The notes: generated from the sequence alone by a model not told the origin. A stretch of 64,000 nt of DNA from a virus (IMGVR_UViG_3300045988_141797), one strand, 5' to 3'. Positions 5,772 to 62,888 are shown, numbered from the stretch's first letter. A program made the numbers and translations.

Positions 5772-6142
5772 GCTGTATCTCCGCTATCTTTCTGCATAAC
5801 AACATTCACGGTGCCTCCTTTTGCCTGGAAGCTAATTAGTAACTGGTCTTCAGAGACAGTCGCGCAGCGGATCGCCTGGAGTCCAAGCCCTGGTAAGTCC
5901 TGCTGTAGCTTCGTCATCATTCGCGCTTCAATCGCCACTTCAACAATGTGTGACGTATCAGAACCGAAGGATTCGTGTTTGAACTCCTCCATCGGATTCC
6001 CCCATGACGGCAATCCGTAAACGCTGCCATTTGGTGTCCGTAGCCATTCATCGAGTCGGGCTATCCAGGCGTTTGTGTCGCCTTCAGCGATTACCACCCC
6101 GCTCTCGTTTGTCTGAAGGCGGGCATCAATCTCATAAAGCAT
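5768..6142 (-). CDS. putative baseplate wedge protein (gp25/W-like)
   Basis: 124 aa, size and position typical of GPW/gp25 family. Confidence 0.35.
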   Translation of the reverse strand: MLYEIDARLQTNESGVVIAEGDTNAWIARLDEWLRTPNGSVYGLPSWGNPMEEFKHESFGSDTSHIVEVAIEARMMTKLQQDLPGLGLQAIRCATVSEDQLLISFQAKGGTVNVVMQKDSGDTA

Positions 6143-36497: not shown

Positions 36498-37439
36498 TTA
36501 ACTAACAATCCAGTCGGTCGCTGCTACATCTTCTGGCTGTAAATCAATCGCACAGATCTTGCCGTCGCGAATGGTGCGCCAGTTTTTCCGTGAGCCTCTT
36601 TCGGGCCATACCCAGACACTTTCAGGCCAGGATGCTCGACGGCATACGGTTGCATACCCTGTTTTAATCTTCTCTCTGGCGGTATGCAACGACAGGTTTG
36701 CCTTTGGACTTTCAGGCACAGGATGGTGAATGGCCTGAAATAGCCCCATCCTGGGATGATACCAGCGTTTGTTACGTGGTTCTGCCTCCGACATAACCTG
36801 CTTAAAGGCTTTCCGGAAGGGGGCCAGGGCCACAATGGAGCGTCGCGCAAGCAAACCGTCGGGAGTTAAAAACTCATGCGTATCAGTGGGTATCCGGTAA
36901 GCGTTGACCAGGTTGCGGCATTTGGCTTCAGTCAGGCCGCATTTTGCCGCCAACTGGCGATAGCCAATGTAGCCTTCTGGAATATTGCCTTTCTTGATCT
37001 GCTCAAGTGTTTCGGTGACCCTGGACACTTGTGCCGATACCTCGGCTACCTGGGCATTTACGGCGTTGATCCTGCGTTCATGCTCAAGATGCATTTGCGC
37101 CATTTCAGCCAGGATTTCGGCTTTTGATTTTAACGGTCCCCTGACATTCTCCAGTTCGCGCCAGCGGTCCACCAGCCGGGCGGTGAATTCCGGAGAGAGC
37201 TGCGCGACGACGATAATACTATCGCGCTTGCCTTGTTCGCCTTCGAAGAAATAGGCTTTTGTGTATTTATTAGGGCTAAGTGATTGATTATTCTCAACTG
37301 TAGCCAATGGCGTATGTTGGATAACTCCTTTAGCAACAAGTCTTTCGATGCTGCGTTTAACATCAGAGTGACGACTTCCCACCAGTTCCGCGATCTCAAT
37401 GCTGGTCATTGTCGCTTTTTGAGAGATGGACAGATTCAT
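36498..37439 (-). CDS. Rha-family phage regulatory protein (antirepressor-like)
   Basis: N-terminus MTSIEIAELVGSRHSDVKRSIERL typical of the Rha family; start overlaps stop of the upstream small ORF (TGATG). Confidence 0.55.
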   Translation of the reverse strand: MNLSISQKATMTSIEIAELVGSRHSDVKRSIERLVAKGVIQHTPLATVENNQSLSPNKYTKAYFFEGEQGKRDSIIVVAQLSPEFTARLVDRWRELENVRGPLKSKAEILAEMAQMHLEHERRINAVNAQVAEVSAQVSRVTETLEQIKKGNIPEGYIGYRQLAAKCGLTEAKCRNLVNAYRIPTDTHEFLTPDGLLARRSIVALAPFRKAFKQVMSEAEPRNKRWYHPRMGLFQAIHHPVPESPKANLSLHTAREKIKTGYATVCRRASWPESVWVWPERGSRKNWRTIRDGKICAIDLQPEDVAATDWIVS

Positions 37440-37654
37440 CAGTGCACCTCCACGCAGTTCATCGGCAGATTCCAGTAATTGAGGATCTCCATCGCATCAA
37501 GAGTGAAGCGAGCAGCAAAAATACAGGGTTCTTCGGGAAGGTATGAGCGCGCCTCTGCTTCGGTAGCAGCCATTACGCAGATATAGAGGTGTTTTTGGCA
37601 GGAATAGAAACGCCAGATAAATTCAGAATGAGTTGGGGTAGGGATAGTAGCCAT
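37439..37654 (-). CDS. small leader ORF translationally coupled to antirepressor (icd-like position)
   Basis: 71 aa, strong RBS AAGGAGG, stop overlaps antirepressor start. Confidence 0.4.
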   Translation of the reverse strand: MATIPTPTHSEFIWRFYSCQKHLYICVMAATEAEARSYLPEEPCIFAARFTLDAMEILNYWNLPMNCVEVH

Positions 37655-53065: not shown

Positions 53066-53716
53066 TCACTCCACAACAAACCAGTCACAGGCCAGTAAAT
53101 CATCCACAGACGGCAACCAAACGCTGTCCATATTTTGTGCATCTTTCAATACAAAATGGTCACCATAAGGAACGTGAATGCCGTGTAAATTGACGCTTCC
53201 AGCGAGAACTAACCAGCAGAATTGCTTTTCGCCTTTCCACTCGCGTCGGGCAACTTTCTTGCCTTCCTTCAACCACATTAGCGCATCAGAGAAGTCGGCT
53301 GCTTCAAGGTCGATTTCTTCTTGCTGGGTGGTGATGCCACCAGCAGAAATAGTTACGCTCCCAGTAAGATTAATCATCACGCCGTTGTCATCCGTAATGA
53401 TGACCGTGGTTCCATTTTTGGAGGCGTCGTTAACCAGGCCATAGCATTCCTCAAATGGTTTCTCCGGGGCATAGAACAGATAACCGTTTTCATAAACGAT
53501 CAGATACCCGCCAGTTTTTGGTCGGTGTTTTTGTAAAAACATTGCGTCAACACAAACTGTTGCCCCTTTTGGTTCAACGAGTTCGATGCAGCCCCAAAGT
53601 GGGGCATCAGTTACTCCGAAAATAACAACATTTTTGATTTTCGATGCACTAACGTTTTTGTGAGCTTTGTATTTGGGAAGGAACTTAAAAAGCTCTTTCG
53701 TGGGCATGTTATTCAT
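53066..53716 (-). CDS. two-domain protein with C-terminal DUF2829 (Tad2-like) domain
   Basis: C-terminal 75 aa DFSDALMWLKEGKKVARREWKG...VWLPSVDDLLACDWFVVE matches the DUF2829 pattern. Confidence 0.5.
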   Translation of the reverse strand: MNNMPTKELFKFLPKYKAHKNVSASKIKNVVIFGVTDAPLWGCIELVEPKGATVCVDAMFLQKHRPKTGGYLIVYENGYLFYAPEKPFEECYGLVNDASKNGTTVIITDDNGVMINLTGSVTISAGGITTQQEEIDLEAADFSDALMWLKEGKKVARREWKGEKQFCWLVLAGSVNLHGIHVPYGDHFVLKDAQNMDSVWLPSVDDLLACDWFVVE

Positions 53717-56303: not shown

Positions 56304-56337
56304 CTAACTTTAAATAATGCCAATTATTTAAAGTTAG
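56304..56337. other. lox-like recombination site (13-bp inverted arms, 8-bp asymmetric spacer)
   Basis: CTAACTTTAAATA-ATGCCAAT-TATTTAAAGTTAG, perfect arms, about 150 bp upstream of the Cre-like start; arms share TAACTT...ATA with loxP. Confidence 0.65.
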
Positions 56338-59115: not shown

Positions 59116-60479
59116 TAGTCATCCTCCGGCTGGTCTATCGCAATCTCGTCATCTACAGCATCAAAACCGGTATCCCCCGCGTCATAATCACCGTAGATAT
59201 CAGCCGTGGCGGAAGGGTCTATATTCAGGTCTTCATCATTGGCCTCAAATTCACCGGCTTTACGTTCTCCGTTCCGGTCGTAATCCCCCATCCCAAGCCT
59301 ATCAACGATTTTCGCTACTTCAGCCCGGCGTTGTGCAAGCCATTGTGGGAGTCCAGCTTGTTGCTCGGCAAACTGTTTCGCCTCTTTATCCAGTTGCTCA
59401 TCATCAACATCGTTAACGTCAGAAACCGGAGGCTCCAGAAGTGAGATCGCTTTTGCCGCTCGTGCCGCCAGGATAGCCGGGACACTGACGCCCTGCCGCT
59501 CGATATATTCAGCAACACCTATATCATCCAGCTCCTCGCGCTCACGCATACGTATAGCGGCGGCGATAACCCTGGCGGCGCGTGCGTCAGCGCCAATGCG
59601 ATACTCAATCTCCTTGCCACGCTGCTCGGCTTGTAGGCGGGCAATCGCCAGTTTTTCTCTGGCCTCAGCCTCCCTGAATGCCTGCTGACGCGCGCCCTGC
59701 GCAAGTTTTTCATCCCCCTGGCGTAGCTTCTGCTCGTTCTGATAGATGGCTGCCAGCCTGGTGATAAAGTCATTCATGTAGTAGGCCGCATCGCTGATCA
59801 GTCCGAGAAGACGCTGCCCTGGGTGCATCCCCTCTGGCTGTGTATCACCGAGGGCGTCAATCTCTTCCTGTAGTCGCTCCGCTTCCTGGTCAACGATAGC
59901 CTGATACTGAATTGCTCGTTCCTGCGCCATCTGTATCGCAAGTCGTAAATGTTCAGTCGCGCCGTTCTTCATCATCTCACGGGCGACGTTGGTGGCAGGC
60001 AAAGTGGTGCTTTGAGCTGATGAATCAGGGATCATTTGCAATGATCCCTTGTTTCGTTGGGCTTTATCGCTGCTTTTAGGGATCATTTCTCCCATTTCAT
60101 CACAAAATGATCCCTTCACATCCTTGTGTATCTTGTTGTTATTACTTGGCTTTTCTTTGTGATCCGCATTTTGTTTTTGCGGCATGGCGCGGAACCGTCC
60201 ACCAGCCAACGATTTGTCAGTTTTTGTAAATTCTGTGCTTTTATTAGCCTTTTTTTGCTCTTTTTTTGAGCCGGTGGCGCTGCTTTTTGCGCGCTGTTTT
60301 GTACTTTTCCCGGTAGCCTTAGCTTTCGCCTTAACCTCATTTTTTTTCATATTGAGATGCTTTCTGGCGGTGTTAAAGCTGAGGTCATGCTGCTCGCAAT
60401 ATTCTTTTATGGTGATCCCGGTTGCTTCTCTTAACTCCAGGAACTTAGCTCGATGCGCTTCCCAGTTAATTAACGTCAT
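59115..60479 (-). CDS. terminase small subunit (PacA-like), contains pac-like site
   Basis: N-terminal HTH, overlap-coupled to large terminase; GATC heptamer cluster within N-terminal coding region. Confidence 0.55.
   Translation of the reverse strand: MTLINWEAHRAKFLELREATGITIKEYCEQHDLSFNTARKHLNMKKNEVKAKAKATGKSTKQRAKSSATGSKKEQKKANKSTEFTKTDKSLAGGRFRAMPQKQNADHKEKPSNNNKIHKDVKGSFCDEMGEMIPKSSDKAQRNKGSLQMIPDSSAQSTTLPATNVAREMMKNGATEHLRLAIQMAQERAIQYQAIVDQEAERLQEEIDALGDTQPEGMHPGQRLLGLISDAAYYMNDFITRLAAIYQNEQKLRQGDEKLAQGARQQAFREAEAREKLAIARLQAEQRGKEIEYRIGADARAARVIAAAIRMREREELDDIGVAEYIERQGVSVPAILAARAAKAISLLEPPVSDVNDVDDEQLDKEAKQFAEQQAGLPQWLAQRRAEVAKIVDRLGMGDYDRNGERKAGEFEANDEDLNIDPSATADIYGDYDAGDTGFDAVDDEIAIDQPEDD
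60028..60167. repeat. pac-like cluster of GATC-containing heptamers
   Basis: GGGATCA 60028, TGATCCC 60042, GGGATCA 60079, TGATCCC 60108, TGATCCG 60161; five Dam sites in about 140 bp. Confidence 0.55.
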
Positions 60480-60868
60480 AGGGAAGCCTCACGTTTTTTC
60501 ACAGCGGCGTTCCATAGCTGGTTAGTCATCGCCACCAACTGACGCTGCTCCTTTCGTAATTGAGCTTCTATCTTTCGGTTGGTGTTTTTCACCAACAGCC
60601 GACCGAATTCAGGAGTGCGCCCGCGCACCTTGAACTGGTATCCATTCAGGCCATGTAACCAATATTTCCGGGGGTATACGCGGTCGTCTATTTCGCAAAT
60701 GGCACGACTGGAACGAACAAAAAAACGTATGATGTTATTTACGTTTACGCGCGACACATGAAGGTGAGGATATTGTGCTTTTGCACGGCTGGTGATTTCG
60801 GTGACCGTCAGATAGCAGTTAGCCCTGATCATGATATCCGCTATTTCGGCGCTACTGATTTGCTCCAT
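60476..60868 (-). CDS. hypothetical protein, candidate late activator by position
   Basis: 130 aa, first gene of the operator-controlled terminase operon. Confidence 0.3.
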   Translation of the reverse strand: MEQISSAEIADIMIRANCYLTVTEITSRAKAQYPHLHVSRVNVNNIIRFFVRSSRAICEIDDRVYPRKYWLHGLNGYQFKVRGRTPEFGRLLVKNTNRKIEAQLRKEQRQLVAMTNQLWNAAVKKREASL

Positions 60869-60976: not shown

Positions 60977-61359
60977 TACCAGCGGGATAAACGAACAACA
61001 TGCTTAACTTTTGCCTCCCACTTCCCTTTATGTTTGTTGATCACCGCCTGCGCCATCTTCAGACTGGCTTCAAAATCGGCTTTTCGACCACTATTGCCCA
61101 CCAGCAACGCTCCGTCTATTTCAGGTAAGCATAAGTAATCCTGCTCGACGGTAAGCGGCATTGATGATGTAACCTGGCAGGCTTTCCATCTGAAGCGTAT
61201 GCGCACACTCCTGACTGACATCACGACATAACCTGATATTGTGCTCTTGTGTCCGGCGTCTGTGCGTGTAGCCTTGCATGATGTTATCTTGCAGGTGATG
61301 ATATCCCAACCAATGTGCATCGCATCCTCAATGCGTAATTTAGTAGCCTCGTACATCAA
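60976..61359 (-). CDS. hypothetical protein
   Basis: 127-aa ORF. Confidence 0.3.
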   Translation of the reverse strand: MMYEATKLRIEDAMHIGWDIITCKITSCKATRTDAGHKSTISGYVVMSVRSVRIRFRWKACQVTSSMPLTVEQDYLCLPEIDGALLVGNSGRKADFEASLKMAQAVINKHKGKWEAKVKHVVRLSRW

Positions 61360-61931
61360 AAAACCTCCCAGTCAGTAGCGATAATATCAACACCAGTTGC
61401 AAACCAGTCTGTCTGTGCCTGTAAATCCCCATTCATCATTACCAGGCGAGGCATAACCATCACATCACAACCTTCAACAATATCGAATGCCTCTTCCGGC
61501 AGGAATTCGACGAGCTTTTCTTTGCTGCCAACACTGCCACGGAGCATCGATATATAGCTCCCTTTAGGCCATGATGTTCGCCGGGCATCAAGCCCCTTCA
61601 TCATCCAGTAAAAGGCCGATGAGAACGGGATGTTCTTTTTGGCGATGAGCACGTTATTCGCTTCTGTGTACTTCAGGAACTTAACTAACCTTACCATCGA
61701 CTCGGATAACGCAATGTACGGCTCATGATTGATTGCTGACACACTTACGCCGTGCAGTCCAACACTTACCACTGTCATATCACCGTTCTGTGCGGTTTCG
61801 ATGTTGACGCCTTTACGAACTAACGCTGCATAAAGCTCCTCGCGCTTTTGCGTCCAGCATTCTCGTCGCCCTATAAAGTCACTCAAAACGAGATCATCTT
61901 CTAAATACGCGTTATCGTTCGCCGTTAACAT
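61356..61931 (-). CDS. second DUF2829 (Tad2-like) domain protein
   Basis: C-terminal half FSSAFYWMMKGLDARRTSWPKG...DLQAQTDWFATGVDIIATDWEVF parallels the DUF2829 block of the 53066 ORF. Confidence 0.4.
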   Translation of the reverse strand: MLTANDNAYLEDDLVLSDFIGRRECWTQKREELYAALVRKGVNIETAQNGDMTVVSVGLHGVSVSAINHEPYIALSESMVRLVKFLKYTEANNVLIAKKNIPFSSAFYWMMKGLDARRTSWPKGSYISMLRGSVGSKEKLVEFLPEEAFDIVEGCDVMVMPRLVMMNGDLQAQTDWFATGVDIIATDWEVF

Positions 61932-62383
61932 AACGTCTCCTTTTTTACACGCGCGACTATCCCCCGGCTGAACCGGTAGTGACGTCGTAACTTCGTATTA
62001 ATTAAGGGTTACAGCCTGAGCGGCTATATGATGAATTGAAAGGAGTTGTGGCGGTGGTGCCTCCACCTGCCAGGTTAGCCACGCCCGGCGACGACACTTA
62101 TCAGAACGTAGTGAATGAAAATGGCTTCGTCACGAGCGCATAGCCGCAATTACCACAACGGAAACGGCGCTCACGCTAATTAAACGCCTTTTCCTGTTGT
62201 ACGCCGTGCTCTTCCGGCTGTCACACCGAATCGCCAGGATGGTGAATCCGCAGTCCGACGCTATGAACGGGGCTTGCACATTCCGGCTACCTGGTGTGCC
62301 CATGCAGTGTTAGTAAAAGGTACCTAACAGCTACACCAGACCGCTAACGACGCATGTGCCATACGCCGTGTTACAACCAAATG

Positions 62384-62459
62384 TGGTGGCCCCTACCGGA
62401 CTTGAACCGGTGACCGTGCGATTATGAGTCGCCCGCTCTAACCACTGAGCTAAAGGGCC
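62384..62459 (-). tRNA. tRNA-Ile2-like (anticodon CAU)
   Basis: cloverleaf with CCA encoded; anticodon arm GGCGA-CTCATAA-TCGCA; close to E. coli ileX from memory; could formally be elongator Met. Confidence 0.8.
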
Positions 62460-62598: not shown

Positions 62599-62888
62599 AC
62601 TTGCAGCCACCTTTTAAGACAAAACGCCATTGCTGTTAGGTTGCGGTGCCGGGTGCCTCCCGGTGACGTTAACCAGTTAACAATTAACGCCGGATCACTT
62701 ATGGATTCTCGTTACGCCAGTAAAAAGACCACCTTTACTGTTTTAACTGTTCCGCGTGCGCTTAGCCGCATTCACCGCAATGGTAAGAGCATTTGGCTGA
62801 CTGGGCGGCGATGACGCCTGTACGCATTTGGTGATCCGGTTCTGCTTCCGGCATTCGCTTAATTAGCCAAATACTCTTAACGTTGCGC

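Follow-up and report, generated by a model that had tools for sequence, protein, structure and literature searches.

Does a protein that carries a Tad2-type domain behind an N-terminal domain of its own still act as a sponge for immune signalling molecules when polar residues of the known ligand pockets have been replaced? The question is raised by a gene on the minus strand of IMGVR_UViG_3300045988_141797, a 64,000-nucleotide (nt) stretch of viral DNA that we analysed as a whole (the window) and that belongs to a phage-plasmid related to phages D6 and P1. An earlier note, made from the sequence alone, had placed here, next to a tRNA array, the second of two diverged proteins with a DUF2829-like C-terminal half, and had proposed that both are signal sponges specialized against different signals or hosts. 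We find that the open reading frame (ORF) is real: it occupies positions 61356–61931, encodes 191 amino acids (aa) and contains in its translation the peptide strings quoted for it. On the predicted structure, the pocket residues and the behaviour of tested relatives, we regard it as an evenly balanced proposition that this protein (hereafter the target) is a divergent two-domain signal sponge of the Tad2 family, one that has kept the fold and the aromatic pocket, not the polar specificity residues.

Few phage counter-defence proteins are as widespread as Tad2 sponges, and recent work finds for them a broad set of ligands that sequence does not readily predict. The family of the target is already recognized in current Pfam and NCBI resources, though not in the phage D6 record; what is new is the architecture, a fusion to an N-terminal domain, and a pocket variant of a known anti-defence family. 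The target differs from all tested Tad2 proteins in its obligatory N-terminal domain and in a pocket without the canonical Asn. It is found only in P1/D6-like phage-plasmids, which have spread far in Escherichia coli and Salmonella of clinical and livestock origin and in some cases bear resistance genes. The gene and its domains are laid out as follows.

61356–61931, minus strand: target coding sequence, 191 aa with an ATG start; homologue of phage D6 orf6 (D6_6)
61659–61901, minus strand: N-terminal domain, aa 11–91; predicted α-α-β-β-β-α fold resembling the Phage ABA sandwich and the double-stranded RNA-binding domain (dsRBD)
61362–61625, minus strand: C-terminal Tad2-like domain, aa 103–190; PF11195, with W121, W176 and D182 kept and P122-K123 for Asn-Gly
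61937–61943, minus strand: Shine–Dalgarno (SD) sequence AAAGGAG, read from the sequence; AAGGAG lies 6 nt upstream of the ATG

The C-terminal domain and its pocket

Residues 103–190 match PF11195, formerly DUF2829 and now called 'Tad2-like, Thoeris anti-defense 2-like domain' in Pfam, over model positions 3–72 of 73 (40.4 bits, E = 4.4e-10; the curated cutoff is 25 bits), and phrog_7362 covers the protein at full length (E = 4.8e-131). In the closest plasmids the PGAP label of the gene is 'MW1434 family type I TA system toxin' (TA, toxin–antitoxin), and a Pantoea homologue is named 'Thoeris anti-defense Tad2 family protein' by NCBI and MW1434 type I toxin by UniRef. D6 orf6, to which the target is 92.1% identical at the amino acid level, is annotated 'hypothetical protein'; the D6 record retains this label despite a protein that exceeds the PF11195 cutoff.

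We built an AlphaFold2 model of the full target (mean predicted local distance difference test score (pLDDT) 88.8) with an alignment from a HMMER search of 1.84 billion representative proteins. The search gave 18 matches in total, and about 10 distant clusters (22–46% identity) have the two-domain layout of the target. When the model was compared with the PDB by Foldseek, the best seven matches were all Tad2 proteins (SPO1 Tad2, ModTad2, HgmTad2/AcrIIA7 and SptTad2), with E values of 4e-5 to 5e-4, target-normalized template-modelling (TM) scores of 0.62–0.74 and a probability of 1.00. Because all seven are Tad2 structures, we assign the C-terminal domain to the Tad2 fold. The C-terminal 88 residues thus adopt this fold in the model and retain two Trp residues and an Asp which, in solved Tad2 complexes, line the pocket for glycocyclic ADP-ribose (gcADPR), and the DUF2829-like half that the earlier note had seen in both proteins is borne out by a common PF11195 profile and, for the target, by a model that matches all solved Tad2 structures.

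The target shares with the Tad2 proteins SPO1 gp34.65, HgmTad2/AcrIIA7, SptTad2 and MoTad2 the helix α1, an antiparallel sheet, the terminal D-W motif and the R-x-x-W and W…D…D-W signature; like them, it is small and phage-borne. With HgmTad2 and SptTad2 it has in common a long β2–β3 insertion containing an (L/V)-P motif. Unlike all of these, however, it alone has a structured domain of roughly 100 residues in front.

In solved structures the gcADPR pocket comprises W25, N26, W73 and D79 in SPO1 Tad2, and W21, N22, G23, W87, S90, T92 and D93 in HgmTad2, which has a separate cyclic-dinucleotide (CDN) pocket (R31, S47, F70 and N85). All four structurally characterized Tad2 proteins follow the pattern W-N-G … W-x-x-S-x-[T/S]-D. 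We retrieved the sequence of HgmTad2, confirmed that its numbering is that of the paper, and aligned both window proteins to it. W121, W176 and D182 of the target align with W21/W87/D93 of HgmTad2 and W25/W73/D79 of SPO1 Tad2, while T179 stands in place of Ser (S90) and V181 in place of Thr (T92). W121 and W176 are invariant in 14 members of the target subfamily, down to 22% identity; the residue after the first Trp varies.

The N-terminal domain (aa 11–91), modelled on its own, reaches a pLDDT of 86.1 and is similar in fold to 1r7l, a Bacillus cereus prophage protein of Pfam family PF18066, 'Phage ABA sandwich domain'; among viral models, too, an ABA-sandwich protein matches it best in geometry (TM 0.65). 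The PF18066 profile matches none of the 12 N-domain sequences, even at E ≤ 10, and the profile of the target subfamily finds 1r7l at E = 0.6 only. With no match to PF18066 at the sequence level, the relation to the ABA sandwich is therefore one of fold only. A profile search of 5.8 billion proteins found the N-domain always together with PF11195 in the same protein, truncated fragments excepted; thus, whereas Phage ABA sandwich proteins stand alone and have no known function, the N-domain of the target is known only as a Tad2 fusion. Matches to ankyrin-repeat structures in the PDB by the N-domain profile were rejected as summed matches to an 'LL..G.DV' motif. Likewise rejected was a 4,941-aa protein (P0012) with 16 matches to residues 55–123, a repetitive gene model of eukaryotic appearance that owes its score to weak repeat hits added together.

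Two Tad2-like copies and their tested relatives

The other protein of the pair lies in a different region of the same element, in the order cre, dUTPase, Tad2-like, isaA.

53066–53716, minus strand: second Tad2-like protein, 216 aa; Tad2 domain at aa 141–215 (53072–53296)

Residues 141–215 of the second copy match PF11195 (E = 2.8e-18), and both proteins match phrog_872 and phrog_1048. Although the two share a C-terminal PF11195 domain and a two-domain layout, the second copy has a W-K-G rather than a W-P-K pocket, no long insertion and an unrelated N-domain, and is much nearer to characterized Tad2 proteins: its sequence matches in the PDB are ModTad2 (7.5e-11), SPO1 Tad2 (5e-6) and the capsid-decoration protein Dec (6e3c; 0.034). 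The earlier note had staked the kinship of the copies in advance on an alignment of their C-terminal domains. Direct BLASTP between target and second copy is not significant (E = 0.50), but the two agree at the profile and structure level; the likeness is therefore confined to profile and fold, and the claim survives in this narrower form. The different N-terminal domains that it had described were found as such: the N-terminal halves do not align and belong to separate PHROG families (phrog_7362 for the target, phrog_11049/872 for the second copy).

When the 808 six-frame ORFs of the whole window were scanned with a hidden Markov model (HMM) of the Tad2 domain, only the target and the 53066–53716 protein were recovered. 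A candidate third copy at 36501–37496 was dismissed (E = 0.12 against the domain HMM; Pfam places it with Rha/winged-helix regulators and gives no Tad2 match). This ORF, on the minus strand, encodes a 332-aa Rha-family/winged-helix regulator, and the weak Tad2 HMM match in its last 65 or so residues is probably due to chance.

The pocket comparison suggested by the note gave a divided answer. The two Trp residues and the Asp are kept in both copies (W121/W176/D182 in the target, W160/W200/D206 in the second), but the residues that follow the first Trp differ. The second copy has W160-K161-G162, W200, S203, D205 and D206, with K161 at the Asn position.

Experiments on relatives allow the copies to be placed. 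Hadary et al. (10.1101/2025.08.24.671296) assayed 18 Tad2 proteins for inhibition of seven signalling defence systems, and we tabulated their Table S2 and scoring rule: 13 of the 18 inhibit at least one system and 5 are inactive. In a BLASTP set of these 18 sequences, the C-terminal domain of the target is nearest to Tad2_69 (31% identity, E = 1.3e-10), Tad2_72 (27%, 2.3e-9) and Tad2_80 (33%, 1.7e-5). All three have its R-x-x-W-P motif, and Tad2_72 has a long insertion as well; unlike the target, they are single-domain proteins of 73–108 aa from metagenomic phages. The second copy is nearest to Tad2_68 (41%, 7e-20) and MoTad2 (39%, 4e-18). Tad2_72, with a W-P-K pocket, inhibits type I Thoeris only, and Tad2_79, with W-S-K, inhibits type I and type IV Thoeris and a cyclic-oligonucleotide-based anti-phage signalling system (CBASS); Tad2_68 is active against Thoeris of types I and II, and MoTad2 against type II Thoeris and both Pycsar systems (10.1101/2025.08.24.671296). 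Since Tad2_72 and Tad2_79 are active without the pocket Asn, that residue is dispensable and does not strictly define a working sponge. The two copies appear to fall in different Tad2 branches, which behaved differently in these experiments, and this fits the idea of specialization against different signals. What the earlier note had called two diverged, specialized sponges is thus upheld as to branch, and is weakened by the replacement of the Asn in target and second copy alike (P122 and K161, respectively).

Caution is called for with the second copy as a sponge. Its N-terminal half matches phrog_11049 and bears a weak likeness to Dec capsid-decoration proteins, and a tblastn match of the copy is a 'capsid decoration protein' of Pseudomonas phage Jeremy. 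Hadary et al. (10.1101/2025.08.24.671296) purposely excluded Tad2-domain proteins with a 6E3C-like domain, so the Dec-like fusion class to which the second copy seems to belong lies outside their survey. A search of their supplementary text, with an incomplete Table S1, came upon neither of the window proteins. In D6 the orthologue of the second copy is orf114, a 'DUF2829 domain-containing protein' flanked by a dUTPase gene and an isaA-like one, the arrangement also seen in the window; because D6 holds orthologues of both (orf6 and orf114), it likewise carries the pair. The D6 orthologue has a different and shorter N-terminus (146 aa). In RCS47 (L005, 2333–2950) the orthologue is a pseudogene truncated by IS26. 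The ssb/dUTPase–isaA locus looks like a rearrangement hotspot.

Sponge activity and its alternatives

If the target is a sponge, its Tad2 domain would assemble into an oligomer with ligand pockets between subunits, like the characterized Tad2 homotetramers, and these pockets would capture and hold the alarm molecule, small and derived from a nucleotide, that a host defence of the Thoeris, CBASS or Pycsar type produces. The defence effector would then stay inactive and the phage-plasmid would replicate. The N-domain would contribute a further surface, for oligomerization or for binding, or would serve in regulation, and the second copy would cover another set of signals. HgmTad2 (150 aa) is functional with an N-terminal extension. 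By analogy, 3′ cyclic ADP-ribose (3′cADPR), the signal of type I Thoeris, is the only ligand with a precedent among the W-P relatives. For an active sponge, identification of the ligand would reveal signalling defences that limit the spread of phage-plasmids in Enterobacteriaceae, and the two diverged copies would be a natural example of joint sponges with different ranges.

Several observations weigh against this function. The diphosphate-binding Asn-Gly (N26 in SPO1 Tad2; N22-G23 in HgmTad2) is P122-K123 in the target, and a W21A/N22A double mutant of HgmTad2 loses binding. Compared with dual sponges of the HgmTad2/SptTad2 type, the target has the insertion but not the CDN contacts: S47, F70 and N85 of HgmTad2 are F143, V159 and T174, and R131, which aligns with R31, varies across the subfamily. 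Sequence comparison of the target with the solved Tad2 proteins is marginal (E = 0.54). Tad2_69 and Tad2_80, both W-P proteins, inhibit none of the seven systems (10.1101/2025.08.24.671296), which leaves two of the three nearest tested relatives of the target inactive. Finally, a sponge role for the two-domain subfamily is argued by comparison with single-domain relatives, and the obligatory N-domain could alter what the protein does. With Asn-Gly changed to Pro-Lys and the polar adenine and ribose contacts altered, the ligand is probably bound in another way than in SPO1 or Hgm Tad2, and it may differ from their signal.

The same replacements, which affect the polar specificity residues of both known pockets, could instead point to a Tad2 fold repurposed for a ligand or macromolecule outside immunity, such as a host metabolite, cyclic di-GMP (c-di-GMP) in control of the plasmid–prophage lifestyle, or a protein partner. 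We consider this main rival a possible, if doubtful, account. It draws on the inactive relatives (two of the nearest three, and five of 18 in the family), on the very high affinity with which HgmTad2 binds the housekeeping messenger c-di-GMP, and on an architecture limited to one plasmid–prophage lineage with a fixed place beside lpa, the late-promoter activator gene. Yet both pocket Trp residues are invariant in the subfamily, which fits a retained nucleotide pocket, and every activity so far shown for the Tad2 fold is signal sequestration. Use of the dsRBD-like N-domain to bind RNA (the transcript's own leader, neighbouring tRNAs, STnc100-like or host RNAs), with the Tad2 domain as ligand sensor or oligomerizer, is in our view unlikely.

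Two further functions are suggested by names. The PGAP and UniRef names would make the target a type I toxin of the 'MW1434 family', with the conserved upstream RNA as regulatory or antisense partner, and the long leader with its predicted occluded ribosome-binding site is superficially like type I toxin control. The name, however, stems from a bioinformatic list of predicted type I toxins that includes the 81-aa MW1434 of Staphylococcus aureus phiSa2 (PMC6266405); structural and biochemical work has since established the members of this family as soluble sponges. With 191 aa and two domains, the target is a soluble protein and no small membrane peptide; neither PADLOC nor NCBIfam reports a TA match, no antisense RNA was identified, and the helix that would occlude the ribosome-binding site has no covariation support. 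We consider a toxin very improbable. An anti-CRISPR role is suggested by the history of the family, in which a DUF2829 protein entered the literature as an inhibitor of Cas9 and HgmTad2, a structural match to the target, is the protein first named AcrIIA7. Type II-A CRISPR–Cas is not known as a feature of E. coli, which counts against this role. The effect on Cas9 could not be reproduced by Li et al. with HgmTad2 or with its homologues, and we give this explanation almost no credence. A divergent signal sponge accordingly remains the function that we favour for the target.

The upstream leader and the gene neighbourhood

The segment between the target and the nearest upstream tRNA is a less expected item than the protein itself. 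The features on either side of the gene are the following.

61932–62201, minus strand: leader part B, 270 nt, untranslated; in D6-like elements only (119 records)
62202–62383, minus strand: leader part A, a tRNA trailer of about 182 nt; in nearly all P1-like plasmids, and equivalent to the trnI–ban spacer of P1
62384–62459, minus strand: tRNA with a CAU anticodon (Met; tRNA-Ile2 in the P1 annotation); ARAGORN, Rfam 66.7 bits
60976–61359, minus strand: downstream ORF, D6 orf5-like, about 126 aa; phrog_7004, E = 8.8e-73
60476–60868, minus strand: lpa, late-promoter activator; PF25716, E = 2.5e-50

Part A occurs in 594 plasmid records at 78–86% identity, with matches in P1, P7, SJ46 and RCS47. 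Part B is 94–98% identical in every pair of five variants, whereas four-fold sites of the target gene are 60–71% identical in the divergent pairs. At a more distant locus (L043), part B is still 77% identical with long near-exact blocks, while the protein is at 53%, the gene at 58% nucleotide identity and its four-fold sites are saturated at 28%. The divergence of the gene at L041 (59% nucleotide against 78% amino acid identity) is likely to be an alignment or frameshift artefact and was not used. Part B is therefore under nucleotide-level constraint stronger than that on the adjacent coding sequence, which suggests post-transcriptional regulation of the target gene.

The 452-nt leader has no gene annotated in eight records and no convincing ORF (the longest is 57 aa). 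A small ORF was rejected as the source of the constraint: near-invariance at every position is unlike coding sequence, and the ORFs present, of 57 aa or fewer, are unannotated in those eight records. The predicted fold of a 287-nt leader segment is more stable than that of shuffled sequences (z = −2.78; none of 200 shuffles as stable). Since there is so little sequence variation, covariation support is thin: both sides of a pair have changed in only 4 of 94 pairs, and a small hairpin at about 61963–61975 shows a clean replacement of C:G by U:A in four sequences. The SD sequence is unchanged in 12 leader variants, and a candidate anti-SD, CUCCUUU (62039–62045), is predicted to pair with it in all three folding contexts. 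Compensatory changes are absent from this helix, which is disrupted in L009 and L043, so occlusion of the ribosome-binding site by the anti-SD is a weak hypothesis only. A loxP-like 13-mer at 61987–61999 (2 mismatches) was put down to chance (at least one match in 60 of 100 shuffles).

An Rfam scan of the leader found nothing at threshold. A leader hairpin, GGUGG-AGGCA-CCACC (about 62052–62073), carries on a compensated stem the loop that is also found in the 3′ hairpin of Rfam STnc100. When related loci are searched with a profile of the leader, many of them show the part B core again, in a weaker version, after tRNA-Ser, suggesting that a repeated RNA module may trail tRNA genes in P1-like elements. 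Directly after tRNA-Ser in the window, 62642–62779 (minus strand) gives a sub-threshold STnc100 match (40.8 bits against a gathering score of 47; E = 3e-7). Two short hypervariable hairpins (62245–62335, minus strand) lie in the otherwise conserved tRNA trailer of part A; whole stems are swapped around a similar loop (for example TGTTAG/CTAACA and AGGGG/CCCCT), giving three alleles each among nine variants.

These features could be joined in one scheme, which we think improbable: the leader, with its STnc100-like hairpin and tRNA trailer, would be a regulatory RNA that gates translation of the sponge and is bound by the N-domain, a self-regulating anti-defence module unique to D6-like phage-plasmids. 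The cue would be tRNA processing, infection or a defence cue, or, as in a riboswitch, the signal molecule itself.

The region of the target shares 84.8% identity with Escherichia phage D6, and E. coli plasmids of about 90 kb match it at 99.5%. The window contains a perfect rox site at 56305–56336 (TAACTTTAAATAAT, a 4-bp spacer and the inverted copy), the kind of site on which the Dre recombinase of D6 acts, and no P1-type C1 operators at 3 or fewer mismatches. Together, these findings identify the element, as judged from its sequence, as a D6-type (Dre/rox) member of the P1-like phage-plasmids and not a Cre/lox element of the P1 type.

The position beside the tRNA array that the earlier note had described is confirmed, in that tRNA-Met ends 452 nt upstream of the target and is followed, up to 63412, by tRNAs for Ser, Thr, Tyr and Arg, all five on the strand of the target. 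We surveyed the context of 31 IMG/VR loci and 2 loci of distant homologues, with proteins 24–99% identical to the target. The lpa gene lies downstream of the target homologue in all 33, and in 32 the first tRNA upstream is tRNA-Met(CAU). In P1, phd/doc, pdcA and pdcB occupy the place upstream of lpa instead. By tblastn against 50,697 phage genomes the target matched only D6, and a one-genome-per-species collection yielded no relatives. The target is thus a lineage-restricted accessory gene in a slot of variable content, with a fixed position between the tRNA/tci cluster and lpa.

The stop codon of the target overlaps the start codon of the orf5-like ORF (TGATG). The orf5-like gene is translationally coupled to the target and is 70% identical to D6 at the nucleotide level, compared with 90% for the target. 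It is absent from the four most divergent of the 33 loci (45–46% and 24% identity), on which ground an obligatory two-gene system of target and orf5 was rejected. In the D6 record (L001, about 6010–6085), tRNA-Met(CAU) is present but unannotated; it aligns with 62384–62459 of the window at 96%.

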